NCBI GenBank assembly: GCA_964480565.1
Contig: CAYZSU010000003.1
Location: 1,415 to 65,414 of the forward strand
Direction: 5' to 3'
DNA: 64,000 bases
Origin: an uncultured Myxococcales bacterium
Lineage (GTDB): Bacteria > UBA10199 > 2-02-FULL-44-16 > JAAZCA01
Numbering within the stretch: position 1 is the first letter of the stretch; each line of letters opens with the position of its first letter. Positions 1,396 to 49,503 of the stretch are shown here, piece after piece. Made by a program: the position numbers and the translations under genes. The notes beneath the pieces were generated by a model. It was not told the DNA's origin, searched no databases, and saw only the letters and a list, made by a program, of their open reading frames with translations.

Positions 1396-1497
1396 AATTC
1401 CTCCTTAGATTATTTTTTATCAATTGAAAGTAAGGGGTATTATAGTAATTTTTTTTGAATCTGCAATGGTTTATTAAGATAATTTAAAAGGAGGATT

Positions 1498-1556
1498 GTT
1501 GAAATTGCTGAGCCGAGAATCGGAATTGAACCGACGACCTGCTGATTACGAATCAG
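1498..1556. repeat. attL: 59-bp direct repeat identical to 9349..9407 (duplicated 3' part of tRNA-Thr plus 13 bp downstream)
   Basis: Exact match gttgaaattgctgagccgagaatcggaattgaaccgacgacctgctgattacgaatcag at both sites; divergence starts at the next base (g versus c). Confidence 0.85.
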
Positions 1557-1698
1557 GCGGTCTTATTTATATCGACATAGATTGAGATATATTATCCTTT
1601 ACATATCAACATGTTAAACGTTATTAACTGTTATCGTGATAGCTGGTAAACGATGTTTCGTGCTTGCTATGTGATTGCTGTAAATGATTGGGAGGGGT

Positions 1699-2901
1699 AT
1701 GAAGATTACCAAGAGTAAGGTTGTGGCATTGAAACCATCGGAAAAAGACAAGCTTTATTGGGATGATTCATTGGCAGGCTTTGGGATAAAGGTGACGCCA
1801 AAAGGAAAGAAATCCTATGTGTATCAATACCGATTGGGCGGCCGGCGAGGCCGGACAAAACGAGTGTCATTGGGTGTTCATGGTGCGGTTACTACAGAGC
1901 AAGCACGGCGTGATGCAGTAAAAATTTCTGGCCAAGTTGCGCAAGGGATTGATGTTGCAGAGGATAAACGCAAAAAGAATACTTCACTAAGGCTCTCAGA
2001 AGTGATGGATGTCTTTTTTAGGGAGCATGTTAATATAAAGCTCAAACTCTCAACGCAGCGCGATTATGAGGGGCTTGTTAGGCTTCATATCAAACCAGCT
2101 TTGGGTAATATCAAGATTGATGAGCTCAACCGAAGTGATATTGCTAGATTCCATAATCGAATGAAGAATACACCGTATTATGCCAATCGTGCCTTGGCTC
2201 TGCTCAGTAAGTTGATGTCATGGTCGGAAGGGCACGGTTATCGATCAATCGGATCTAATCCCTGTATTGGCCTTGAAAAATATCATGAGAAGAAGCGTGA
2301 AAGATTTCTAAACGATGCAGAACTTCATAAATTGGGAATGGCAATTACAAAACTTGAAGAGAGTGGGAATATTTCTGAATACGCTGCGGCAGCTATCCAC
2401 ATGCTCCTTTTCACCGGCTGTCGTCTTCAGGAGATTTTAAAACTCAAATGGGATGAGGTGGATGATGCGAGAGGGTTGCTCCGATTAACCGACACAAAAA
2501 CGGGTCAACGCAATGTAATTATAAATGCTTCTGCGCTAGAAGTGCTTCAAGGAGTAAAGCGAATTGAAGGAAATCCATACGTGTTTTGTGGCCATAAGCC
2601 AGGTCAGCCGATCATCGAATTACGCAAATCTTGGAAACGTGTTTGCATGGTCGCAGAAATTGACAATGTACGCCTTCATGACTTGCGTCATACGCATGCG
2701 AGTGTCGCTATTGCAGCTGGTTACTCCCTTCCAGTTATTGGTTCTCTTCTGGGGCATACACAACCTCAAACTACTGCCCGTTATAGTCATCTCAGTGAAA
2801 GTCCAGCCCGCATTGCCTCGGAATCGGTAGGTGAGCACTTAAACCGCGTGATGAGTGGCAAGGGAACGGTGAGGAGTTTAAAGACTGTGGGTAGTAAATA
2901 G
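1699..2901 (+). CDS. int: Tyrosine-type site-specific integrase, P4-like (N-terminal arm-binding DUF4102-type domain)
   Basis: C-terminal catalytic motifs HDLRHTHAS...LLGHTQPQTTARYSHL (R-HxxR-Y); N-terminal LYWDDSLAGFGIKVTPKGKKSYVYQYR; RBS gggagggg upstream of the ATG at 1699 (ORF track begins at 1684). Confidence 0.9.
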   Translation: MKITKSKVVALKPSEKDKLYWDDSLAGFGIKVTPKGKKSYVYQYRLGGRRGRTKRVSLGVHGAVTTEQARRDAVKISGQVAQGIDVAEDKRKKNTSLRLSEVMDVFFREHVNIKLKLSTQRDYEGLVRLHIKPALGNIKIDELNRSDIARFHNRMKNTPYYANRALALLSKLMSWSEGHGYRSIGSNPCIGLEKYHEKKRERFLNDAELHKLGMAITKLEESGNISEYAAAAIHMLLFTGCRLQEILKLKWDEVDDARGLLRLTDTKTGQRNVIINASALEVLQGVKRIEGNPYVFCGHKPGQPIIELRKSWKRVCMVAEIDNVRLHDLRHTHASVAIAAGYSLPVIGSLLGHTQPQTTARYSHLSESPARIASESVGEHLNRVMSGKGTVRSLKTVGSK

Positions 2902-2916
2902 TCAAAGGAGTTAATT

Positions 2917-4023
2917 ATGTCGATGTTAGCCTTTTTCCCATGGTTGAAGATTGCCGAGGATGTTGAATGCGATGATTTTAAGTTGATTCGATATGAAAGA
3001 GGGCGGCTTCCAGGTCCAGTAGGCAGCGAAATGCAAAAGATTTGTGATCGTTTGCTACAGCCTTTTGTTGAGCGTTATTATGATTCTGATGATAATGATT
3101 GTCCAGTTGCCAATGCCACAATCTGCCTACTTAAGAACAAGGATCTATTTGATGATTATGATGAAAGTGATCGGGAGAATTTATTCGAAATAGCTGAAGT
3201 GGTCGCCTTTTGCGGCCTTGCAAAAAGAGAATACTTTCAAGGTTTTTTTGACAATTATCATAATGCGGATAGCTATCATCTTGTTATGCAGGGGTTTGAA
3301 GGTTCTGACGGTGGTTCTTGTATTATAACGCGTCGTCGTGACGGTAGCAATAAGGATCTACGTTCAAAAGATACTTACAAGGTCAGTAGGCCATTTAACG
3401 TGGGTTGCAATAACACAATAAAGCTCGACATATCCCTTATGAATGCCCTTATTAAAGCGCTAGAGGATGAAAAGTTGAGTCTGGCATGTGCCGATGCGAT
3501 TTTTAGTTTCAATAAAGCCAATACAGATAGTTCATTGATGACCGAATACCATGAAATGGTTTTTATGTTGAGTGCGATGCAGCGGCTCTTTAATTGTAAT
3601 TATAAAGAGGATAATACTGCAAAAGCATTTATGAGCTTGATGGATTCATATTCTAAACTAAAAGTTTCCAACAGTGATCGATTAAAAGGGCACCAAAAGC
3701 AAACAAGAACTATTTCAGAAGCATGGCTTCGGGATTTTTTTCAGCTGAGGGGGCATTTTGCTCATGGGAAACGGGTGAGTCAGCAGAAACACTATTGGAC
3801 GCTCAAAGAACATCTGCTATTCGCCTCATATATCATTCCGTTATTGGCCAAACAAAAGCTTTCAAATGAAGGATACTATTCATTGACCGATGATGATTTG
3901 TCCCAGCTACGTACCTTCGAAAAACTGCTGGATGAGGATGTGTTCAAAAAAATATCCAAAGAATGTGAACAACAATGTTTTGAATGGAATCGTGTGGTTG
4001 ATGAAGAAAAAGATAGGTTGTGA
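2917..4023 (+). CDS. Hypothetical protein (368 aa), translationally coupled to the integrase; island cargo
   Basis: Starts 13 nt after the int stop with RBS aaggag; no recognised domain; contains QLRGHFAHG (R-x4-H, HEPN-like spacing, speculative). Confidence 0.6.
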   Translation: MSMLAFFPWLKIAEDVECDDFKLIRYERGRLPGPVGSEMQKICDRLLQPFVERYYDSDDNDCPVANATICLLKNKDLFDDYDESDRENLFEIAEVVAFCGLAKREYFQGFFDNYHNADSYHLVMQGFEGSDGGSCIITRRRDGSNKDLRSKDTYKVSRPFNVGCNNTIKLDISLMNALIKALEDEKLSLACADAIFSFNKANTDSSLMTEYHEMVFMLSAMQRLFNCNYKEDNTAKAFMSLMDSYSKLKVSNSDRLKGHQKQTRTISEAWLRDFFQLRGHFAHGKRVSQQKHYWTLKEHLLFASYIIPLLAKQKLSNEGYYSLTDDDLSQLRTFEKLLDEDVFKKISKECEQQCFEWNRVVDEEKDRL

Positions 4024-4066
4024 TGGGCAAATATCGCAAAAGATCTTGAAGAGTTAGAGGGATAGG

Positions 4067-4735
4067 ATGAAAAAGGAAATCTGTAAAAAATTAAAATCTA
4101 GTCCAAAAAAACGTGATACATCACTTCGAGCTCAAGAGCGAGGAATCTATAACTGCATTAGAAGGGATGCTGATATTAAGGAGCTTGGTTGTGATGCATG
4201 TAGAAGTATTGCGAATAAGCTGGCTCGTGGACTAAGAGACTTTGGCAGGAAGGGATGTGTTGAAGCGTCGAAAGAGATTGTGGCTCTGAATCTGGGATAT
4301 AAAGTTAAGGTTAAAGGAAGAAGTCGGTCGATTACAGATAATGAGGTTGAAAAGTTTTATCAGTACTTTATCCAGGCCTCAGAAATTCAGACTATAGAGT
4401 CCTCTAAAAGAAAGATGCTTGAATATGCCGATGTATTAAAAGACCTGCAGAAAAGAAGAGTTAGATATAAGGACAGTAGAAAACGTGAAGCAAAAATTGA
4501 TAAACAAATGTTAAAGGGAAGCGAAAAATTTGTAATCACTGCTTTGATGAAAGAAATTGTTGATATTGTAGATTTTGAACTGAAGAAAAAGAGGTATTCA
4601 GAACGTCGATATCTTGATCATTCCTTTAAGTTGGTTGCAGTAATATTCCAGTCAATTGCGGATCCTTCCATAGCGAAGTTCAACTGGAAGAGGATTAAAT
4701 CGAGTGTCAATAAGTCGTTACCTCCGATGAAATAG
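4067..4735 (+). CDS. Hypothetical highly basic (Lys/Arg-rich) protein (222 aa); island cargo
   Basis: RBS gaggga upstream; co-directional and 43 nt downstream of orf368; composition suggests nucleic-acid binding. Confidence 0.55.
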   Translation: MKKEICKKLKSSPKKRDTSLRAQERGIYNCIRRDADIKELGCDACRSIANKLARGLRDFGRKGCVEASKEIVALNLGYKVKVKGRSRSITDNEVEKFYQYFIQASEIQTIESSKRKMLEYADVLKDLQKRRVRYKDSRKREAKIDKQMLKGSEKFVITALMKEIVDIVDFELKKKRYSERRYLDHSFKLVAVIFQSIADPSIAKFNWKRIKSSVNKSLPPMK

Positions 4736-4851
4736 TGCTTAAATTTCACTTAGGTATCACTGTCGATATTCTGCAGTGGTTCCCTTTCTCGCAATATTCT
4801 GAATGACTCTGTATTCTCCTGTGTAAATCATAACACATGGGAGGAAATGTC

Positions 4852-5064
4852 ATGAACCAAGATAAGAAGTATTTACGTACCCCAGAAGCGGCGTCCTATA
4901 TTGGATTATCTGAAAGCACTTTGATCAAGGATAGGTGGAGCGGTCATCTTCAAATTCCTCATGTTAAAGTTGGTCGTTCGGTTCTTTACGATATTGGCGA
5001 CCTTGACGCGTGGTTAAATGGGCTAAAGGTAAACACGATTGAGGTCAAACATGAAGGATCGTAA
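4852..5064 (+). CDS. alpA: AlpA-family phage transcriptional regulator / excisionase-like DNA-binding protein
   Basis: YLRTPEAASYIGLSESTLIKDRWSGHLQIPHVKVGRSVLYDIGDLDAWL matches the AlpA/Xis HTH pattern; RBS gggagg 7 nt upstream of ATG 4852. Confidence 0.85.
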   Translation: MNQDKKYLRTPEAASYIGLSESTLIKDRWSGHLQIPHVKVGRSVLYDIGDLDAWLNGLKVNTIEVKHEGS

Positions 5065-5500
5065 GTCTGTAGAAAATGAAGACTTTGGATGTCCAATACT
5101 TGATGCCTTTATGTATGTGCCGGAAGGGATATATGACGTGGCATTTGTTAGATATGACCGTCCTGTAAATGTATTTGGCCCTGATGAACGAAGAATATTT
5201 TTTCACTGGAAAATCGTGACGCCTGGTGAATATTTTGAAGTACAACTATTTCAGTCATTTAAGCACTATGAAAGATGGGGAACACAATCGAAATACTATC
5301 GATGCTGGTGCTTGGCGGCTGGGCAGCGTCCACGCCGTCGAACAAGGATGACGCCAGATGTTTTTAAAGGTAAAATCTTTAAGGCTTCAGTTGAAATCGT
5401 ACAACCAAAATATGAGGATGGACCTTTTAAAGGAAAATCTCGGCCCGAGGCGGAGTGGTATAGTGTAGTCCGAAATTTATTGGAGATTATCGCAGGATGA
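5051..5500 (+). CDS. Hypothetical protein (149 aa), overlaps the alpA stop (translational coupling)
   Basis: ATG at 5051 preceded by gagg; no recognisable motif. Confidence 0.5.
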   Translation: MKDRKSVENEDFGCPILDAFMYVPEGIYDVAFVRYDRPVNVFGPDERRIFFHWKIVTPGEYFEVQLFQSFKHYERWGTQSKYYRCWCLAAGQRPRRRTRMTPDVFKGKIFKASVEIVQPKYEDGPFKGKSRPEAEWYSVVRNLLEIIAG

Positions 5501-5740
5501 AAAATCAGCGAATAGACATTAGTATTCAGTAGCTAGAAACCAGCAGAAAGAAACAAACAACTACCAACTTAGGGTCGATAAAAGTGTTGTCAAATGATCA
5601 TCTGCTGGATGCTTTGGACAAGTAGCACCTTTGGAAGCGGCTAACCAGAAAATATGCCAACAGCTCGGCTCTAACTTAAAGATGAGTCAGAGTCGAGCGC
5701 CAAAGGGTTGTGTTAATAACAGGAAAAACAGGTAATTTTA

Positions 5741-6154
5741 ATGCGAGATAATAAAGGAAAATTTTTGTCAGGATACAGTGGAAATCCGGATGGACGGCCA
5801 TCTGGCTGCCAAAGCAGGCTCTCGAAGGAACTTCAGCATGCAGCGGAGGATATCCTTCCACTCTGGATTGATGCTGCTTGTAAAGGTGATGAGGAGAAAC
5901 AGCGGTTTTTATTGGAGAGGGGACTTCCAAAATTTAAGGCTCAATCACCTGAGGTGAATATCAACCTTGATAGCGAAAGCAATACTGAGCGCATACGGTT
6001 GCTGTTGGTCGCTGTTGCGAAAGGGGAAATCCCTTCATCCGTAGCATCTGAGATCGTATCCATGATTGCAGCGGCAGCGAAGGTGGGGGAGATCGAAAAG
6101 CTGAAAGAAGAACTTGCAGCGGTCAAACTGATCCTGTCGAAGCGAAAGAAATGA
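5741..6154 (+). CDS. DUF5681-like phage/satellite-associated protein (137 aa)
   Basis: N-terminal SGNPDGRPSG resembles the GNP-x-GRPKG signature of DUF5681 proteins found in phages and satellites; coiled-coil C-terminus. Confidence 0.5.
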   Translation: MRDNKGKFLSGYSGNPDGRPSGCQSRLSKELQHAAEDILPLWIDAACKGDEEKQRFLLERGLPKFKAQSPEVNINLDSESNTERIRLLLVAVAKGEIPSSVASEIVSMIAAAAKVGEIEKLKEELAAVKLILSKRKK

Positions 6155-6162
6155 GGTGAAGA

Positions 6163-6687
6163 ATGAATACTTTTCAGTTGAGGGAAAAATATCGATATTT
6201 GACGCCGCAGGAGCGGGCAAAACTGTTTCTGTCTCAAGCGGTTCCCTACCAGGATAATCTCTTGGCCAACACCTTATCTTCTGAGACGCTATACGAGAGC
6301 TATCTGATGAATCTTACCGAATCACGATTGGTGATCTTTGGCATGTATTGGCTAAACAAGCTTACATTTCTTGAAGGAATGAATTCGAAAATCATTATGT
6401 CAGAGGATTTTGATACTGAATTTCAGAAACGATACGGTGATTTTGGCGATCCGGCTGCCGCGCTTGCTTATGTATTGAGCGAATTCGACAAGGAACATGG
6501 GGGCTGGCTGCAAGGTATTGCCGTTATTATGGGTTGTCAGGAATGTTGGGATCGTGCCCTTGCACGTAGCAAACTTATTCAACAATATAATCTCGATCAT
6601 AATTTCCCCGATCGCGTAGATAATATTTATAAAAATGTGCTGTCATTTTGGGAACACGTAGAACATTTGGATAATATTCAAAGTTGA
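6163..6687 (+). CDS. Hypothetical protein (174 aa)
   Basis: ORF with RBS gaggtg; 8 nt after the previous gene; no recognisable motif. Confidence 0.5.
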   Translation: MNTFQLREKYRYLTPQERAKLFLSQAVPYQDNLLANTLSSETLYESYLMNLTESRLVIFGMYWLNKLTFLEGMNSKIIMSEDFDTEFQKRYGDFGDPAAALAYVLSEFDKEHGGWLQGIAVIMGCQECWDRALARSKLIQQYNLDHNFPDRVDNIYKNVLSFWEHVEHLDNIQS

Positions 6688-6893
6688 GTTATATGAGGTT
6701 AATCTATTTATGAACCTTCAGGATTTTTCCGTCTTCGAGGGAGTGGCTCACGCGATGTTGCAGGATATGATTAGATTGTGGCGCGAGTGGTTATTTTTCA
6801 TTAATAATTATGAGACGGTAAGTGTCATGGAATGAGAACAGCTGCAAATTAGAAAATGTAAAGTCAGATGATACTACAATGAGAGCATTGTTG

Positions 6894-7637
6894 TTAGAAT
6901 AATTCAATTTGAAGATATTTCCAACAATTTGGAATGCTGCACGGTAAATTGAAGTTTTTTTCGTAAACCTTTTCAAAAAACATTTTTCTTACATCCTCTT
7001 TTTTTAATTTCAGAATTTCGATTTGATCTATAGTCAATCGAATTGTAGCGGGTGGAATATAAGCTTGTTTCGGATCGAATGGCTTTGCTTCAGCTAACAA
7101 TGAATCTTCCGTGTTTTGTGTGTGAATGTCGCTAGGTCCATTGAGATCTAGATAGCACTTAGAGAGTAGATGACGAAGTGATTCTGTATGTTTTCCTTCA
7201 GCATGCAGGATTTCTGCCATTTCCCAGTGGCAAAAACTATATTTCATCCATTCGTTATTACCGGCGTAAATTGAGAGTTGTTGGTTTAATATTGGCCAAC
7301 GCCTATTTCTTTCTTTTCGGCGCTTGGCTTCCTCTTCTTTTAATAGTATTTTCCCTTCCTCTAGATTAAATACTTTCTTCAGGTTTCTCTCTGTAAAATA
7401 AATGTGAATGTATTCATTTGAACAATGAGGGCAAATCCTCTTTCGTTTTCTACCAGGATTAATGAGTGGAGTCTTGCAATGTGGGCAATCATATTCTTTA
7501 TGAACCGGTGGTAGCTTAATGAATGGTTGTTCTGGTAATTTATGCTCGGTGATTTTGTTCTTCTTCCTTTTTCTTTTAATGTAGTGATTTACACAGAGTG
7601 ATAGTGAAAGTAATATGATAAACACTGTAAACCACAT
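6894..7637 (-). CDS. Membrane-anchored zinc-ribbon protein (247 aa); second gene of a leftward two-gene module
   Basis: N-terminal TM helix MWFTVFIILLSLSLCV, basic stretch, then CPHC-x15-CPHC zinc ribbon; C-terminal domain unknown. Confidence 0.6.
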   Translation of the reverse strand: MWFTVFIILLSLSLCVNHYIKRKRKKNKITEHKLPEQPFIKLPPVHKEYDCPHCKTPLINPGRKRKRICPHCSNEYIHIYFTERNLKKVFNLEEGKILLKEEEAKRRKERNRRWPILNQQLSIYAGNNEWMKYSFCHWEMAEILHAEGKHTESLRHLLSKCYLDLNGPSDIHTQNTEDSLLAEAKPFDPKQAYIPPATIRLTIDQIEILKLKKEDVRKMFFEKVYEKNFNLPCSIPNCWKYLQIELF

Positions 7638-7686
7638 CTATAAGCCTCCAGTTCTTGGGTTTGTTTACATATTCTCTTTTAACACC

Positions 7687-8454
7687 TTACTGCAAAACAT
7701 TGTCATTCTTTTCTTCAAGGAGTTTTGTCTTTCGTTTCTTCTTGTTTGGCAGTGATATCTTGATCGTTTCCATCTCATTATTGGCGGCTTCATTGAGAAG
7801 ACGGCGGATACCGCTGACGATTTCTTCTGGTGTAATCATAATTCCAGTTGTTCGGCGAAGCTCTCGGCGTATTCGTCGAAGATTATCTTCGGATAATATC
7901 GTTTCAAGGAGGTTGCCAGCTGAAAGCACATTGCGCTTTTTCCAAAGGGCATCGAGGCCACCCTTTTTGACGTTTTTGAATCCAATTTCCTCAAATCGCT
8001 CTGCAAGTAATGCAGGGGAGTCATTGAGTATGTTCCATGTATAGATTAGTTTCGTCTGAGGGGGTTGGCCGAATGAAATGTGATACAACTGCCATTCACG
8101 TCCATTGCTGAGCATAACCCATTCACAGCCTTTGTTAATGGCATAAGAGGCAGCCTGCTTGATATGCTTAGTAGCGAGATCAACATTTACTCGTTTGAGT
8201 TCAATGAGAATGATAGGTTCAGCATTATCAAGTTGGACTGCAAAATCGCAATATTCAATTTCCCCAGGGCCTTGGACTGCGTGTTCGCGAGTGACATGCT
8301 TAAAAACATCATATCCCATAAGTGAGTGGATAATTCTTTCAACGCGTCGCCTGGTTTCGGCTTCATTTCCATCTATATGCATGAGTTCCTGGATCATCTT
8401 TTGTGACTCTCGAATTGCTTTACGTGTTTCGGCTGCCATTTTTGCACGTGCCAT
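7687..8454 (-). CDS. PD-(D/E)xK nuclease-fold protein, HsdR-N-terminal-like (255 aa)
   Basis: GEIEYCDFAV...IILIELK gives a D...(E)xK catalytic arrangement typical of restriction-endonuclease-like nucleases; Arg-rich C-terminal extension. Confidence 0.55.
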   Translation of the reverse strand: MARAKMAAETRKAIRESQKMIQELMHIDGNEAETRRRVERIIHSLMGYDVFKHVTREHAVQGPGEIEYCDFAVQLDNAEPIILIELKRVNVDLATKHIKQAASYAINKGCEWVMLSNGREWQLYHISFGQPPQTKLIYTWNILNDSPALLAERFEEIGFKNVKKGGLDALWKKRNVLSAGNLLETILSEDNLRRIRRELRRTTGIMITPEEIVSGIRRLLNEAANNEMETIKISLPNKKKRKTKLLEEKNDNVLQ

Positions 8455-8540
8455 GATTGAATCGCCCTTTCTTTTTCCTTCTGCTGGATATGGTCAATAA
8501 TACCATAGGCAGATATACCTGTGGTCTATATAAGTCAAGC

Positions 8541-8765
8541 ATGACCTATGAAGAAACTTATGCCGCTTTCTCAAAACGTTTTCGTGGAAATTTGAAGAAA
8601 GCTTTGGCGGATGCAGGTTTGACACAAAGAAAGCAGCTTCTTGCTGGTCTAGATCCTCGTTACATTGCACGAATTAAAGCAGGTCAAGGCAATCCTACCC
8701 TTCAAACCATCTGGCGACTTGCTATTGCCGCTGGCATCGACCCTGAGAAGCTGTTTAAGAAGTGA
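8541..8765 (+). CDS. XRE-family helix-turn-helix transcriptional regulator (about 74 aa; start uncertain, ORF track begins at 8457)
   Basis: C-terminal TLQTIWRLAIAAGIDPEKLF is HTH_XRE-like; divergent from the nuclease gene. Confidence 0.5.
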   Translation: MTYEETYAAFSKRFRGNLKKALADAGLTQRKQLLAGLDPRYIARIKAGQGNPTLQTIWRLAIAAGIDPEKLFKK

Positions 8766-8837
8766 TTATTTGATTCGTCTTATGTTTGAAATATAATGAT
8801 GTACAAAAAGCAGGGAACACCGTTCCATAGATCTTAA

Positions 8838-9026
8838 TCTAAGCTTATCAGTAGAGGTCGCAATGCAGGCCTACTAGAAGCAAGGTATCGTCGAAATGTG
8901 TTTCTAGCAGATTGCTTTGCATTAGCGTTTTCCAGAAAAATGGGTGCAAAACTCATCACTTCTGATTTAAAATTAATAGAGGCGATTTCTGGAGATTTCA
9001 ATTATGCAATCTGTTTATTCAGATAA
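8838..9026 (+). pseudogene. PIN-domain (VapC-like) toxin remnant: C-terminal 62 codons only, no start codon, no antitoxin
   Basis: Open frame translating ...NVFLADCFALAFSRKMGAKLITSDLKLIEAI... resembles the VapC C-terminus (AD-x-x-IAA-x-A-x-x-G-x-x-L-x-T-x-D); preceded by an in-frame stop at 8835. Confidence 0.45.
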
Positions 9027-9348
9027 AACTTGAAAAACTTAGGGCGAAGGCTGAGTTAAAACTAAAGCAAGAAAGGCTGTATTAAAAAGGACAATGCTTG
9101 CACTGTAATAAAATATATTTTTCATATCTAGCCTCCTTTGAAGTTCGTCTATAAAAAAGAATATTGAACCCAGCATGATCCGCCACACGGTCATCACCGT
9201 CCTAAATTTTCCAATCACATTTCAAAGAACTACAGGACTATTCATTTTAACATAGCCACGTATAGATTTAACCATTCGTAGAAAATTTTGATGTGCTTAC
9301 TATGTGCTTGCTAGAAAAAAATGGGGCTGCTGCAAAAGACCGTAACCT

Positions 9349-9407
9349 GTTGAAATTGCTGAGCCGAGAATCGGAATTGAACCGACGACCTGCTGATTAC
9401 GAATCAG
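9349..9407. repeat. attR: 59-bp direct repeat, overlaps the 3' 46 nt of tRNA-Thr
   Basis: Identical to 1498..1556. Confidence 0.85.
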
Positions 9408-9434
9408 CTGCTCTACCAACTGAGCTATCTCGGC
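9362..9434 (-). tRNA. tRNA-Thr (anticodon CGT), 73 nt; integration target of the island
   Basis: Cloverleaf folded by eye on the reverse complement: GCCGAGA acceptor, GCTC/GAGC D-stem, GCTGA-TTCGTAA-TCAGC anticodon arm, TTCAATT T-loop. Confidence 0.85.
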
Positions 9435-9444
9435 TAAAATAATG

Positions 9445-9528
9445 TACCGAAGGCCGGATTTGAACCGGCACAAGCTAGTGCTCGGCAGATTTTGAATCTG
9501 CTGCGTCTACCAATTCCGCCACTCCGGC
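9445..9528 (-). tRNA. tRNA-Leu (anticodon CAA), type II with long variable arm, 84 nt
   Basis: Reverse complement GCCGGAG...GCAGA-TTCAAAA-TCTGC...variable arm...CCGG-TTCAAAT-CCGG...CTTCGGT-A. Confidence 0.8.
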
Positions 9529-9533
9529 AATGT

Positions 9534-9743
9534 CTATTCTGATTTGGAGTTATTAGTCGTTTCAGCGGGAATTACAAGGCCATTTGCGATTTCACGCAAT
9601 GCAGTTACTGTTTCCCGGTTTTTGCATTTAACTAATGGGTTTGCACCTTGATGAAGTTGCTTAGTGCGTGCGCTTGCTGTATGTACAAGTGCAAAACGAT
9701 TTTCAACTCTCTCTAAACAATCTTCTACAGTAACTCTGGCCAT
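9534..9743 (-). CDS. rpoZ: DNA-directed RNA polymerase subunit omega
   Basis: [30 protein letters not shown] is the conserved RpoZ N-terminus. Confidence 0.85.
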
Positions 9744-10056: not shown

Positions 10057-12750
10057 ATGACTATGAATCTAAAAAAATCGATATATTGCTTATTTATTTT
10101 TGTTTTAGTTAGTTGTCTCAGTCAAACATCGTTTTCGCACCAATTTGACCTAAGTACAGTGGACGAACTCGTGGATGTTGAAAATACATCGGGTCGAATG
10201 ATTGTGGGACAGAATGATCATTTCTATATCTGCTATATTGATCGTCAAGAAAATGATTTAAAATTAGCGGAGTATGATGGGCAGGCATGGAATACGTCAA
10301 CAATTGTGGATGATCCAGCGGGTAATGCAGTTGTTGGTCGATATTGTTCGATTATTGAAGACAATTTGCAAAATTTACATATTCTTTATTTGACAGATTC
10401 CAATAGCAATACGATTCGCCACGTGTATCAGCAAGAACAGGCATGGATTGATGAGCATGTAGCGGATAATGTGCGGGCTGCGTTTTCACCGGTGGGTAGT
10501 AGCCGAATAAGCGTTGCTTTGAATGGAAATAATAAAATTGCTATGGCAGTTTATGATTCATCATTAAAAAATTTGATGTATATCGAGCAATTGGACAATG
10601 ATACTTGGGATGTACAAACTCTTGTTAGTAATGGTGATGTAGGGCGCTATGCATCAATTGCCTTTGATTTACAGGGCAATCCTATCATAATATATTCGGC
10701 GATGGAATTTGATGCGATTGCTCAGCGGAGTTTTGCACGGTTATATAAAATATGGCGAGATGGCGATCAGTGGCAGACATCAGAGCAGATATCAACTTCG
10801 GGCAGTTATAATGATTTTTTAATCGATGCGCAAGGACGAGGCCATTTGATTTATTCTACAGGGTCGGAGTTATATTATCGCCGATGGGTTGATGATCAAT
10901 GGCAAGGTGCCTATTTAATTGATCGCTCGACCTATGTGGGTATGTATTGCAATATGTATATGGATGTGGCGGGTAATTTGTTTATTGTCTATCAGGATAA
11001 ATATCGCAGCGCGCTATTTCCAGATCTCAATCAGTTAAAATTGGCATCGCTTTACTTTCAAACCACGGATTGGTTTTCAAGCGTATCAACGGAAACGATT
11101 ACTTTTTCAGGTATGGGGCAGGGATTGCAAAATCAGTATAGTCCATCCATTGGGATTACTGATGATTATCAAATGAGACTCACATGGTTAGAATCCTATG
11201 ATGCGCCAAATAATGAAACAAATCATAGGCTAAAAATTGCAGCGCTTCGCAATTGGCAATCGCGAATTGCCTTGATTACGCCAAATGCAGATGATCATGA
11301 TGCCACGGAAGAATTTGATTTTGAATGGTATTATTTTGATCCTGAAAATGAATCAACCATTCAGATTCACTATTATCAAGATTTTAATGATCAGCATGTA
11401 TTTCAAACTAATATTCATACTTCAAATCAGAGTTTGCATGAAGTCATCGATGTAGCGGATCTTGTGGCGGGATCCTATACTATTAAAGCGAGTATTACGG
11501 ATGATGCTAATCCGAGTGTAGAGTTTAATGCGGTTCACGCATTGGAGATCAATAATCGAGTACCCAACCAGCCATCACTTGTATCTCCTGAGCATGAAGC
11601 GACAGTGACAAGTGCATTGCCAGATCTAACCGCGAGTACTGTCACTGATTTGGATGGGGATGATGTGGTATATGTGTTTCAAGTATATCGCGATGATGCG
11701 GGACAGGACTTAGTGACAGAGTCTGCAGATATACAGGTTGTGCCAGGGGCGGATGATGTTGTATGGCGTGTGGATATTGCGCTAGATGATGGCAATACCT
11801 ATTATTGGCGTGTCAGGGCAGTCGATGAACACGATAATATGAGTGATTGGACGGACTATCGTTCATTTGATGTGGATATTGCGCATGCACCGACGCAACC
11901 AAAAGATATTCAAATTAATCTTGCGAATCATGCAATGCGTCCTATTATTTCCTGGGATAATAGTGTGGATATAGATGACGATGATATTCATTATAATGCA
12001 GTTATTTGTATAGATCAGCAATGTGCCACTGTTTTTATATCGGATGATGCTGTTATAGAGGACTTTTCAGGTCGATCTTCATGGCAGATAGATCAGGATT
12101 TAGATGCGGGGGATTATTATACTCGTGTGCGCGCCATTGATATTACGAATTCCAGTAGTATTTGGTCGACTACAATTGATTTTCAAATTGATGTGCCAGT
12201 TCAAGAGCCTGAAGAGCCTGAAGAGCCTGAAGAGCCTAACGCCGAACCATCAAATGATTTGCAAAATAATGATGACGATCTTGTACAAGATGAGGAGTCA
12301 ATTGATACTCCAGCAATAGATGAGCAAGATGATACCGCGCAATTGCAAGATGACACTGAAAACGATGATGCGGCGGAACAAGAAGCAACGGAGGATAACT
12401 CTGGTCAAAGTGGAGACGTGAGCGCTTCTGCCAAAGGGGGCTGTCAAATGATTGCCAATGATTATGAGCAAGATATATCATTATATATGGTCATGATTAT
12501 TTGTATGAGTATATGTGGGTATAGGCGAATCACCCTAAAATACGTTTTTCGAAGGCTTGGTCAGTCTGCTTTGCTTCAGATTCGTTCGTCATCGCGAGAG
12601 GCCCGACGGGCAATGTGGCGATCCAGCTTGGGATTGCTTCGTCACTTCGTTCCTCGCAATGACACAGTATTGGTACAACATCTCGTTTTTAGATCGAAGT
12701 TACGAAAGATGTCAGGGAGTGTTCTTATTGAATTTCCTGCCCAATATTAA
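10057..12750 (+). CDS. Large secreted repeat protein (897 aa): signal peptide, Y/W-rich beta-propeller-like repeats, FN3/Ig-like domains with YYWRVRAVD motif, acidic low-complexity region, C-terminal tail overlapping a palindromic repeat element
   Basis: Signal peptide MNLKKSIYCLFIFVLVSCLSQTSFS; repeated x-Y-x-W blocks; GNTYYWRVRAVDEHDNMSDW; EPEEPEEPEEP. Confidence 0.6.
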   Translation: MTMNLKKSIYCLFIFVLVSCLSQTSFSHQFDLSTVDELVDVENTSGRMIVGQNDHFYICYIDRQENDLKLAEYDGQAWNTSTIVDDPAGNAVVGRYCSIIEDNLQNLHILYLTDSNSNTIRHVYQQEQAWIDEHVADNVRAAFSPVGSSRISVALNGNNKIAMAVYDSSLKNLMYIEQLDNDTWDVQTLVSNGDVGRYASIAFDLQGNPIIIYSAMEFDAIAQRSFARLYKIWRDGDQWQTSEQISTSGSYNDFLIDAQGRGHLIYSTGSELYYRRWVDDQWQGAYLIDRSTYVGMYCNMYMDVAGNLFIVYQDKYRSALFPDLNQLKLASLYFQTTDWFSSVSTETITFSGMGQGLQNQYSPSIGITDDYQMRLTWLESYDAPNNETNHRLKIAALRNWQSRIALITPNADDHDATEEFDFEWYYFDPENESTIQIHYYQDFNDQHVFQTNIHTSNQSLHEVIDVADLVAGSYTIKASITDDANPSVEFNAVHALEINNRVPNQPSLVSPEHEATVTSALPDLTASTVTDLDGDDVVYVFQVYRDDAGQDLVTESADIQVVPGADDVVWRVDIALDDGNTYYWRVRAVDEHDNMSDWTDYRSFDVDIAHAPTQPKDIQINLANHAMRPIISWDNSVDIDDDDIHYNAVICIDQQCATVFISDDAVIEDFSGRSSWQIDQDLDAGDYYTRVRAIDITNSSSIWSTTIDFQIDVPVQEPEEPEEPEEPNAEPSNDLQNNDDDLVQDEESIDTPAIDEQDDTAQLQDDTENDDAAEQEATEDNSGQSGDVSASAKGGCQMIANDYEQDISLYMVMIICMSICGYRRITLKYVFRRLGQSALLQIRSSSREARRAMWRSSLGLLRHFVPRNDTVLVQHLVFRSKLRKMSGSVLIEFPAQY
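12205..12237. repeat. Tandem 9-bp repeat (gaagagcct, about 3.7 copies) encoding EPEEPEEPEEP in the 897-aa protein
   Basis: Read directly in the sequence. Confidence 0.8.
12588..12665. repeat. Palindromic REP/MITE-like element (imperfect inverted arms gtcatcgcgagagg / cctcgcaatgac); its right arm is 32/35 identical to 49166..49200 in inverted orientation
   Basis: Reverse complement of 12631-12665 is gtgtcattgcgaggaacgaagtgacgaagcaatcc versus 49166-49200 gcgtcattgcgaggagcgaagtgacgaagcaattc. Confidence 0.65.
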
Positions 12751-48926: not shown

Positions 48927-49070
48927 TGTTGAAAAATGGACAATTTGTGGGGTTGGTCAAAAATGCCCAGATTCAAGGCGCCCGCAAATCCGCAACCGGA
49001 GCGTACACGAAAGTACGTGAGGATTGCGGGTGCAGCGGGAAACACCGAAGATGGGCGTTTTTCAACAACC
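48927..49070. repeat. Structured about 140-bp intergenic element with partial terminal inverted repeats (tgttgaaaaa...tttttcaaca; ggggttg...caacccc) and nested internal hairpins; its 5' 40 bp is copy B of the motif at 9931..9970
   Basis: Inverted terminal matches and internal stems gcccgcaaatcc/ggattgcgggtgc and gcgtac-acgaaa-gtacgt read directly in the sequence. Confidence 0.5.
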
Positions 49071-49165
49071 CCATAATTGAATTTATGGTTTATTAACATT
49101 TAGATAATATCCTAAAACCCACCATTCGACTCATTTAAAAGTTATCAGACTATAGTACAAATACT

Positions 49166-49426: not shown

Positions 49427-49500
49427 GGCTGGGTAGCTCAGGCGGTTAGAGCGGAGGATTCATAACCCTCAGGTCGGCGGTTCGATCCCGCCCTCAGCCA
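49427..49500 (+). tRNA. tRNA with CAT anticodon (elongator Met or Ile2/lysidine type), 74 nt
   Basis: GGCTGGG acceptor paired with CTCAGCC; GCTC/GAGC D-stem; anticodon loop TTCATAA; T-arm GGCGG-TTCGATC-CCGCC; G1-C72 paired (not initiator-like). Confidence 0.8.
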
Positions 49501-49503
49501 CAA

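Follow-up and report, generated by a model that had tools for sequence, protein, structure and literature searches.

A tRNA-Thr-borne integrative element with a conserved backbone and exchangeable cargo, a candidate primase-less phage satellite of an uncultured marine bacterium

What kind of element has settled in the tRNA-Thr(CGT) gene of an uncultured marine bacterium, how does it move, and what does it carry? The question is raised by a 64,000-nucleotide stretch of contig CAYZSU010000003.1 (assembly GCA_964480565.1, an uncultured Myxococcales bacterium), hereafter called the window, near the left end of which an original prediction had placed a satellite-like island with an almost wholly uncharacterized cargo. 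The present study reveals that the segment 1497-9407 is almost certainly a mobile or recently mobile integrative element. Judged by its ends, it is a site-specific element of ~7.85 kb residing in the 3′ half of the tRNA-Thr(CGT) gene. Taken as a whole, the reading that we favor, with some reserve, is a primase-less minimal phage satellite or "hitcher" with three anti-phage cargo slots. The parts of this reading do not stand equally firm: an anti-phage function of the cargo is likely, and the case for the island being a phage satellite is evenly poised. The boundaries of the island are as follows.

1497..1556, no strand: attL, the displaced 3′ part of tRNA-Thr(CGT) plus 13 nt (repeat search, Rfam, sequence)
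9348..9407, no strand: attR, the repeat copy that forms the 3′ part of the intact tRNA-Thr (repeat search, ARAGORN)
9361..9434, minus strand: tRNA-Thr(CGT), the integration target (ARAGORN; Rfam, 73.3 bits)

The repeat search recovered a perfect direct repeat of 60 nt, with copies at 1497-1556 and 9348-9407 and a start-to-start spacing of 7851. The original prediction of an attL/attR layout at this tRNA gene is borne out, with a repeat one base longer than the 59 nt proposed. The two copies enclose the 7.85-kb segment, and the 7 nt adjoining them are unlike between the copies. The next longest direct repeat family reached 30 nt at 70% identity, and a perfect 60-nt repeat within 12 kb is not a chance event. 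The right copy comprises positions 28-74 of the tRNA-Thr (its 3′ 47 nt) and 13 nt downstream, whereas the left copy is a displaced 3′ fragment to which the Rfam tRNA model gives a marginal score (29.8 bits, 1511-1576). Two marks of an Islander-type island are present, i.e., an intact tRNA with its displaced 3′ fragment as a bracketing direct repeat, and an integrase gene within the bracketed segment. Beyond the tRNA-Thr lies tRNA-Leu(caa) (9444-9528), and then an rpoZ-like gene (9534-9743). Both junctions recur in two independent assemblies from different samples (JGI 3300009008 and 3300007511), with 1 mismatch in 14 kb. Therefore, the island is no assembly artifact or chimera. Furthermore, its oligonucleotide composition is foreign to the host: the tetranucleotide signature of the island is an outlier in the window (z = 6.8), with an L1 distance of 0.265 against 0.131 ± 0.020 for leave-one-out host windows.

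A diverged relative tells backbone and cargo apart. A search with the protein orf153 of the island over 5.8 billion proteins returned a sole close homologue, located on an 11.3-kb contig (L087) that has tRNA-Thr-derived sequence at both ends and the gene order of the island. Seven genes are common to both and constitute the backbone; they are listed below with the protein identity between the two copies.

1699..2901 (or from 1684, an upstream ATG), plus strand: int, P4-type tyrosine integrase (Pfam, PHROG); 69%
4067..4735, plus strand: orf222, a basic, helical protein; 38-39% to L087 orf215
4837..5064, plus strand: HTH_17/AlpA-like excisionase-regulator (Pfam, PHROG, NCBIfam); 66-70%
5051..5500, plus strand: orf153, OB-fold DNA-binding protein (DUF669/PrgE-like), overlapping the alpA-like gene; 67-69%
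5741..6154, plus strand: DUF5681 protein, 137 aa, candidate small-terminase-like packaging protein; 62%
6163..6687, plus strand: orf174, tightly linked to the DUF5681 gene; 46-48% to L087 orf179 (L087 3481-4020)
8541..8765, plus strand: XRE-family HTH_3 regulator, divergent from the nuclease operon (Pfam, PADLOC); 81-84%

Between the two copies, synonymous sites of the backbone genes are saturated, and dN (nonsynonymous divergence) is 0.11-0.54. Saturation at synonymous sites together with low dN indicates purifying selection on all seven genes. The GC content of the backbone is 0.55 in L087 (1-5100) and 0.42 in the window, a difference implying that the two copies have a history in separate hosts. 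Members of the family have adapted to hosts far apart in base composition and have kept the tRNA-Thr target. In both copies, int sits at the tRNA-distal end, by the displaced fragment and not beside the intact tRNA. In L087, attL and attR are identical only over the 22-nt CGACCTGCTGATTACGAATCAG, which covers the anticodon stem-loop and the variable region, and this confinement places the crossover in that segment. The T-arm differs, so the L087 element brought a slightly different tRNA 3′ end, as expected if it came from another host.

While the backbone is shared, the two copies differ at three positions.

Slot A, between int and orf222: orf368 in the window; nothing in L087
Slot B, between orf174 and the XRE gene: a nuclease gene and orf247 in the window; an unrelated zinc-ribbon gene in L087
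Slot C, between the XRE gene and attR: a PIN fragment in the window; ThsA_Macro and ThsB_TIR (Thoeris), a KAP NTPase and a 644-aa gene in L087

These three positions are the mark of a mobile backbone with exchangeable cargo. The integrase-proximal position had been foreseen as a cargo hotspot, and it does hold orf368 in the window and nothing in L087. By shared gene order and target, the island and L087 form a previously undescribed family of two diverged members, both in tRNA-Thr. A metagenome scan with an alignment of the integrase gave only relatives of 27-44% identity, and a word-indexed search with the DUF5681 protein returned the query itself alone.

Is the recombination machinery intact? 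The integrase matches Arm-DNA-bind_3 (formerly DUF4102), Phage_int_SAM_3 and Phage_integrase, each above the Pfam cut-off, and is complete, with arm-binding, SAM-like and catalytic domains. Residues R247, K272, H332, R335, H358 and Y367 are present and are kept in L087. The P4-type integrase that the original prediction had seen just inside attL is thus intact. The sites at which it may act, and a candidate operator, are listed here.

1660..1682, plus strand: candidate arm-type site GTGCTTGCTATGTGATTGCTG, two tandem ~11-nt units, just upstream of int
9293..9316, plus strand: second candidate arm-type site GTGCTTACTATGTGCTTGCTAG, 32 nt inside attR
4758..4778, no strand: palindrome CACTG-N11-CAGTG, candidate operator upstream of the alpA-like gene (conserved with L087)

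The motif GTGCTTRCTATGTG occurs exactly at 1660 (104 nt inside attL) and at 9293 (42 nt inside attR) in the same orientation, and this count was reached in none of 100 shuffles (0/100). Both arms of L087 have kept it despite a diverged background. The copies of GTGCTTRCTATGTG are probably arm-type sites for the Arm-DNA-bind_3 domain. As for directionality, the AlpA-like protein matches HTH_17 (PF12728; 34.6 bits, cut-off 27) as well as phrog_66, annotated "excisionase and transcriptional regulator". The Phage_AlpA model itself does not match it, so that the proposed AlpA-family assignment holds through HTH_17 and phrog_66 and fails at the namesake model. The palindrome upstream of this gene is followed by GTTCCCTT, and the two are conserved with L087 in an otherwise diverged spacer; the XRE or the AlpA-like protein may use the palindrome as an operator. 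The XRE gene (ORF of 74-102 aa, gene call of 74 aa) is the best conserved of the backbone, its product has "control protein" as the best PADLOC match (1.6e-6), and it is a candidate master repressor. A scan for promoters and terminators gave no enrichment over shuffles.

Which backbone gene could couple the island to a phage? The DUF5681 protein is the candidate. Its Pfam match (PF18932) is just above threshold, 28.7 bits against a cut-off of 27.5, and it also matches phrog_9747. Full-length homologues (29-30% identity) occur in siphophages of the Skatevirus and Deseoctovirus type, where the gene lies directly upstream of the large terminase gene, sometimes with an HNH homing gene in between, and a fully annotated siphophage genome of this type contains no other small terminase candidate. 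The phage homologues thus occupy the position of a small terminase gene; a TerL gene is absent from the island. Homologues nearer in sequence (up to 35% identity, E 7e-14) reside in circular "non-mobilizable plasmids" of 7-13 kb, namely L105 (NZ_CP055032.1), L106 (NZ_CP146235.1), L107 (NZ_CP093253.1) and L108 (NZ_CP056897.1). In a Moellerella element (8.7 kb) and a Citrobacter element (8.6 kb), the DUF5681 gene directly adjoins a gene for a major capsid protein, and in a 13.3-kb circle, too, it lies next to one. Tyrosine recombinases are carried by such circular elements, with Arc repressors also present, and DUF5906 or VirE and toprim primases occur in those of Moellerella and Shigella. From this gene content, these 7-13 kb circles look like unrecognized extrachromosomal phage satellites. 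The positions taken by its homologues point to a role of DUF5681 in DNA packaging.

Upstream of the DUF5681 gene lies a further conserved element.

5549..5740, plus strand: conserved non-coding region with a nested stem (two sequences compared)

This spacer (190-240 nt) has a mean column identity of 76% with L087. The consensus fold, CCUUUGG...CCAAAGG, encloses two hairpins, and, in this comparison of two sequences, 4 pairs are kept through two-sided changes; the fold of the single sequence has z = -1.85. The region may serve as a pac site or an origin, or be transcribed as a leader RNA.

The partner of the AlpA-like gene, orf153, has a model (pLDDT 93.2) with a classical OB fold. An exhaustive phmmer search gave 280 relatives. 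Among the 62 that were aligned, 3 weakly match DUF669 (best E 1e-4) and PHROG families annotated as "single strand DNA binding protein"; orf153 itself matches no Pfam or PHROG model. It differs from PrgE (pCF10) and from the phage DUF669 proteins, which resemble single-strand DNA-binding (SSB) proteins, both in this lack of a model and in its partnership with HTH_17. In four other contigs, a homologue of orf153 follows or adjoins an HTH_17 gene, except that in one of them (L103, pair at 649-1352) an unannotated 75-aa gene takes the HTH_17 place. Near the pair lie a tyrosine integrase (L093, 9771-12027), a large serine recombinase (L104, 4376-6916) or a resolvase (L095, 7880-8852). As cargo, the islands with this pair have a Type I restriction-modification system or other genes. 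Given such company, the HTH_17 and OB-fold pair appears to be a portable accessory to site-specific recombinases, and, as far as we could find, no description exists of their fixed partnership beside recombinases.

The two remaining backbone proteins yielded less. Searches of Pfam, PADLOC, PHROG and NCBIfam gave no match for orf222, whose homologue in L087 begins one base past the stop codon of int. No match to orf174 was obtained in phages. The protein orf174 and its L087 homologue did hit the WD40 region of MIOS/WDR24 (GATOR2), with E 1.6e-4 in Pfam and E 1.7e-6 with a PDB profile, which is probable noise, and a weak bS18 match among the searches with orf174, orf222 and orf247 was treated in the same way. 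None of these three proteins showed convincing homology to known families.

We turn to the cargo, for which the window holds the following genes.

2917..4023, plus strand: orf368, slot A, an N-terminal alpha/beta domain and a C-terminal HEPN domain
7687..8454, minus strand: protein of 255 aa with an HSDR_N_2 PD-(D/E)xK nuclease domain, slot B, absent from L087
6894..7637, minus strand: orf247, slot B, an N-terminal transmembrane helix, a CxxC...CxxC zinc ribbon (weak zinc-ribbon matches) and a helical domain
8838..9026, plus strand: start-less C-terminal fragment of a PIN-domain gene, slot C (PF01850, E 0.019, profile 81-115 of 120; weak)

The protein orf368 has no sequence-level match in Pfam, NCBIfam, PADLOC or the PDB. 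Its family numbers ~49 proteins, none of which has a name or a Pfam domain, and R278 and H283 are invariant among the 48 sequences aligned. These two residues lie in an RGxxAHG motif, which is the Rx4H signature of HEPN. In the AlphaFold model (pLDDT 92.7, pTM 0.92), the C-terminal domain has the four-helix HEPN fold together with the Rx4-6H motif, and residues 1-170 form an alpha/beta domain distinct from known HEPN proteins. Homologues of orf368 adjoin genes for AbiEii, SIR2_2 or NACHT/AAA_22 near tRNAs, or lie in regions rich in transposases and integrases. The protein shares the HEPN fold, the Rx4H motif and the defense context with HEPN proteins of abortive infection and toxin systems (the AbiA C-terminal domain, AbiV, HEPN-MNT and Csm6). 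In contrast to HEPN-MNT and the like, it has the N-terminal alpha/beta domain of ~170 residues and lacks an adjacent MNT-type antitoxin gene. Fold and motif make it most likely that orf368 would act as a single-protein HEPN effector, an abortive-infection RNase. The neighboring orf222 was considered as a dedicated antitoxin for it and rejected, as L087 has orf222 without HEPN and HEPN homologues occur elsewhere without orf222.

In slot B, the 255-aa protein scores 46.1 bits with HSDR_N_2 (cut-off 25) and matches phrog_17239 over its full length (6e-39). The annotation of its relatives reads restriction endonuclease or HsdR N-terminal domain protein; Shedu SduA, the top match among PDB sequences, is weak (E 0.0099). 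Downstream of this gene lies orf247, which is unrelated to the L087 gene in that position and has one distant homologue, in an unannotated region of Photobacterium. The nuclease and orf247, together with the divergent XRE gene, may form a two-gene defense module, a candidate that is the weakest of our assignments. The fragment in slot C resembles a decayed PIN toxin gene. That it once formed a toxin-antitoxin pair with the XRE gene is unlikely, since XRE is kept in L087 with Thoeris after it. Thus, the view that every cargo gene defies annotation has to be given up: orf368 (HEPN), the 255-aa protein (HSDR_N_2), orf153 (OB fold), DUF5681 and XRE have all been assigned.

How does the island relate to known satellites? 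Small marine satellites with int and alpA, as well as phage-transduced defense islands in tRNA or tmRNA genes, have been described (PMC10803314, PMC9618062, PMC12595487). By gene content, the island lies outside the P4-like, PICI and PICMI families as these are defined. The P4-like model of SatelliteFinder comprises int, psu, delta, sid, alpA, epsilon and alpha. From this set the island has the integrase and AlpA (as HTH_17 rather than the Phage_AlpA model), and psu, delta, sid, epsilon and alpha were unmatched in Pfam, PHROG and NCBIfam scans, the dedicated SatelliteFinder profiles not having been run. The likeness to P4-like satellites and PICIs (PMC10085698) consists in the architecture of the integrase, the AlpA-like gene, integration at a tRNA and defense hotspots near the integrase. 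In contrast to P4, the island is without psu/delta/sid, epsilon and the alpha primase; in contrast to PICIs, it has neither a primase-replicase nor a capsid-morphogenesis gene, and DUF5681 is the sole packaging candidate. Low-completeness matches of "type C or lower", which the island reaches at best, are considered unreliable by the authors of SatelliteFinder (PMC10085698).

PICMIs (PMC10803314) resemble the island in being very small marine elements that encode a tyrosine integrase and carry defense cargo but no capsid-remodeling genes. In both, a small gene comes after the AlpA-type HTH gene, and int has a contiguous neighbor (iolg/icg there, the orf222 homologue in L087). However, the island lacks the mandatory DUF3987/DUF5906 primase, its site is tRNA-Thr and not next to fis, it has DUF5681, orf174, the OB-fold protein and XRE, and its host is no Vibrio; the likeness is one of gene content. 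VEIMEs (PMC9618062) are likewise marine and small, with an integrase, an AlpA-like regulator and excisionase genes; some of their modules encode small terminase homologues and Abi-like genes, and some are without a known replication gene. They are, however, defined by recovery from virus particles, whereas our island is known from sequence and has no match in IMG/VR. The int and alpA islands at tmRNA or tRNA genes that are transduced by helper phages (PMC12595487) share with it the direct repeats, the tRNA-type gene, the tyrosine integrase with alpA, the defense cargo and the absence of autonomous-transfer genes. Those islands are larger, three of them sharing a region of ~18 kb (with ~20-39 numbered ORFs), and have a core of RadC, YqaJ and inovirus Gp2-like genes. 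The suggestion in the original prediction that the island resembles P4-like satellites or PICIs is therefore plausible through DUF5681, which that prediction had missed, and does not hold under the definitions of either family. Its statement that capsid, tail, primase and replication genes are absent stands in so far as models for capsid, tail, lysis, primase and relaxase proteins matched no ORF of the island (Pfam, PHROG, NCBIfam); it has to be qualified by the SSB-like OB-fold protein.

How would such an element live? We propose that the P4-type integrase would bind the arm-type sites on either side of the core and recombine within the anticodon stem-loop. The AlpA-like protein would give directionality or activation and assist excision, and the XRE protein would otherwise hold the element quiescent. 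Once the element is excised, the OB-fold protein may coat or organize its DNA, and DUF5681 would act as a small terminase subunit, steering the large terminase of a helper phage to package the element. The cargo genes would protect the host against other phages. A fuller version of this proposal, to which we give tentative and less than even credence, is a new family of minimal primase-less satellites in "deltaproteobacteria-like" marine hosts, with DUF5681 as its own small-terminase analogue, an HTH_17-coupled OB-fold protein, an XRE switch and three slots of shuffled defense genes, among them a new single-protein HEPN abortive-infection family.

Several results weigh against a satellite with anti-phage cargo. 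The island has no primase, replication initiator or recognizable origin, and in PICMIs the loss of the primase cuts replication and brings transfer below detection (PMC10803314). The 59-nt att core had 0 exact matches in metagenome and viral contigs, and neither an empty site (attB) nor an attP junction nor a circular form was recovered from metagenome, viral and genome contig collections. A 7851-bp Logan contig (L101, SRR8062320_40324) was rejected as a circle: it equals window 1527-9377, is a k=31 unitig, reaches 30 nt into each 60-nt repeat and is as long as the repeat spacing. Logan contigs break at the repeat because the graph of a k=31 assembly forks there, so contigs of this kind that end at the repeat cannot tell an occupied site from a circle. 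This case is a pitfall for the calling of circularity in short-k assemblies. Viral scans of IMG/VR with orf153, DUF5681 and orf174, single or aligned, gave no relative, and the family is known from its two diverged members and near-identical copies of the window island. The PHROG families of the DUF5681 protein are of "unknown function", a profile search of PDB sequences matched it to no terminase, and a DUF5681 protein has been detected in one virion proteome, which is unusual for a small terminase. PADLOC-DB 2.0 found no known defense system in the window, with weak matches to regulators and the N-terminus of a methyltransferase, so that we infer a defense role from domains and context. Finally, GC content, which the original prediction had suggested as a way to set the island apart, shows no contrast (0.404 in the island, 0.393 in the flanks, inside the spread of host windows), and tetranucleotides alone separate the two.

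Could the locus instead be an integrative defense island with no dedicated satellite biology? In that case, the integrase, the AlpA-like protein and the OB-fold protein would form an excision module, the island would spread by generalized transduction, transformation or an unidentified conjugative helper, and DUF5681 and orf174 would have a regulatory or other DNA-binding role that has nothing to do with packaging. We consider this rather unlikely, yet it accounts for several of the observations. The HTH_17 and OB-fold cassette stands beside tyrosine or serine recombinases in other islands without DUF5681; the island has no primase or replicase and no copy on a viral contig (IMG/VR); DUF5681 matches no solved small terminase in sequence; and islands without recognizable transfer genes are common (PMC12595487). 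However, in phages and satellite-sized elements DUF5681 is consistently linked to terminase or capsid genes, and DUF5681 and orf174 are under purifying selection in both members of the family. Pfam and NCBIfam scans also found no relaxase or oriT-type gene. A decaying, immobile remnant of a prophage or island, with its genes drifting, would agree with the PIN-gene fragment as a sign of local decay, with the lack of matches to structural, lysis or replication genes and with the missing empty site. Such a remnant is nevertheless very improbable: no mismatch separates the two 60-nt repeats, the full-length integrase retains every catalytic residue, the seven-gene backbone persists in L087 despite the large gap in GC content, with dS saturated and dN low, and the arm-type sites are conserved in both copies while cargo has been exchanged at three positions. 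An assembly chimera arising from repeated tRNA sequence can be dismissed for practical purposes, for although the short-k Logan assemblies break exactly at the repeat, the window and the two JGI assemblies cross both junctions identically, and L087 has the same architecture in a different organism.

Which bacterium carries the element? The rpoZ product beyond the tRNA genes is at most 74% identical to any match among 185,579 species representatives, implying that the collection searched contains no close relative of the host. The best matches come from metagenome-assembled genomes assigned to "Deltaproteobacteria", Myxococcota, Desulfobacterota and Bdellovibrionota, and neither the island nor its flank genes were present at any of the 80 rpoZ-matching loci examined. 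Outside the island, the flanking chromosome (window 10057-12750 and beyond; contig L001, 1-5727) encodes a secreted protein of 863-897 aa whose tail is an acidic PEEPEE repeat, as well as a giant alpha-2-macroglobulin-like protein (>1,900 aa). Besides, a segment of 150 nt recurs at 85% identity at window 48934-49083, upstream of tRNA-Met (49427-49501), and at 2501-2651 of contig L100, ~1.4 kb left of the window start.

Small islands with an integrase and AlpA are emerging as major marine carriers of anti-phage genes and as phage parasites, and most of their described families come from cultured Vibrio or enterobacteria. Should the satellite reading prove wrong, the locus would still be a clean tRNA-borne defense island, in itself an ordinary finding. 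Two testable hypotheses follow from the analysis, that DUF5681 is small-terminase-like and that the HTH_17 and OB-fold pair is a recombinase accessory module. If true, siphophages of the Skatevirus and Deseoctovirus type would have in DUF5681 their missing small terminase, and a group of 7-13 kb "plasmids" would turn out to be extrachromosomal satellites. A compact backbone with delimited cargo slots from an uncultured lineage may also serve as a guide to new defense genes, such as the HEPN family described here, which has ~49 members and no existing model.

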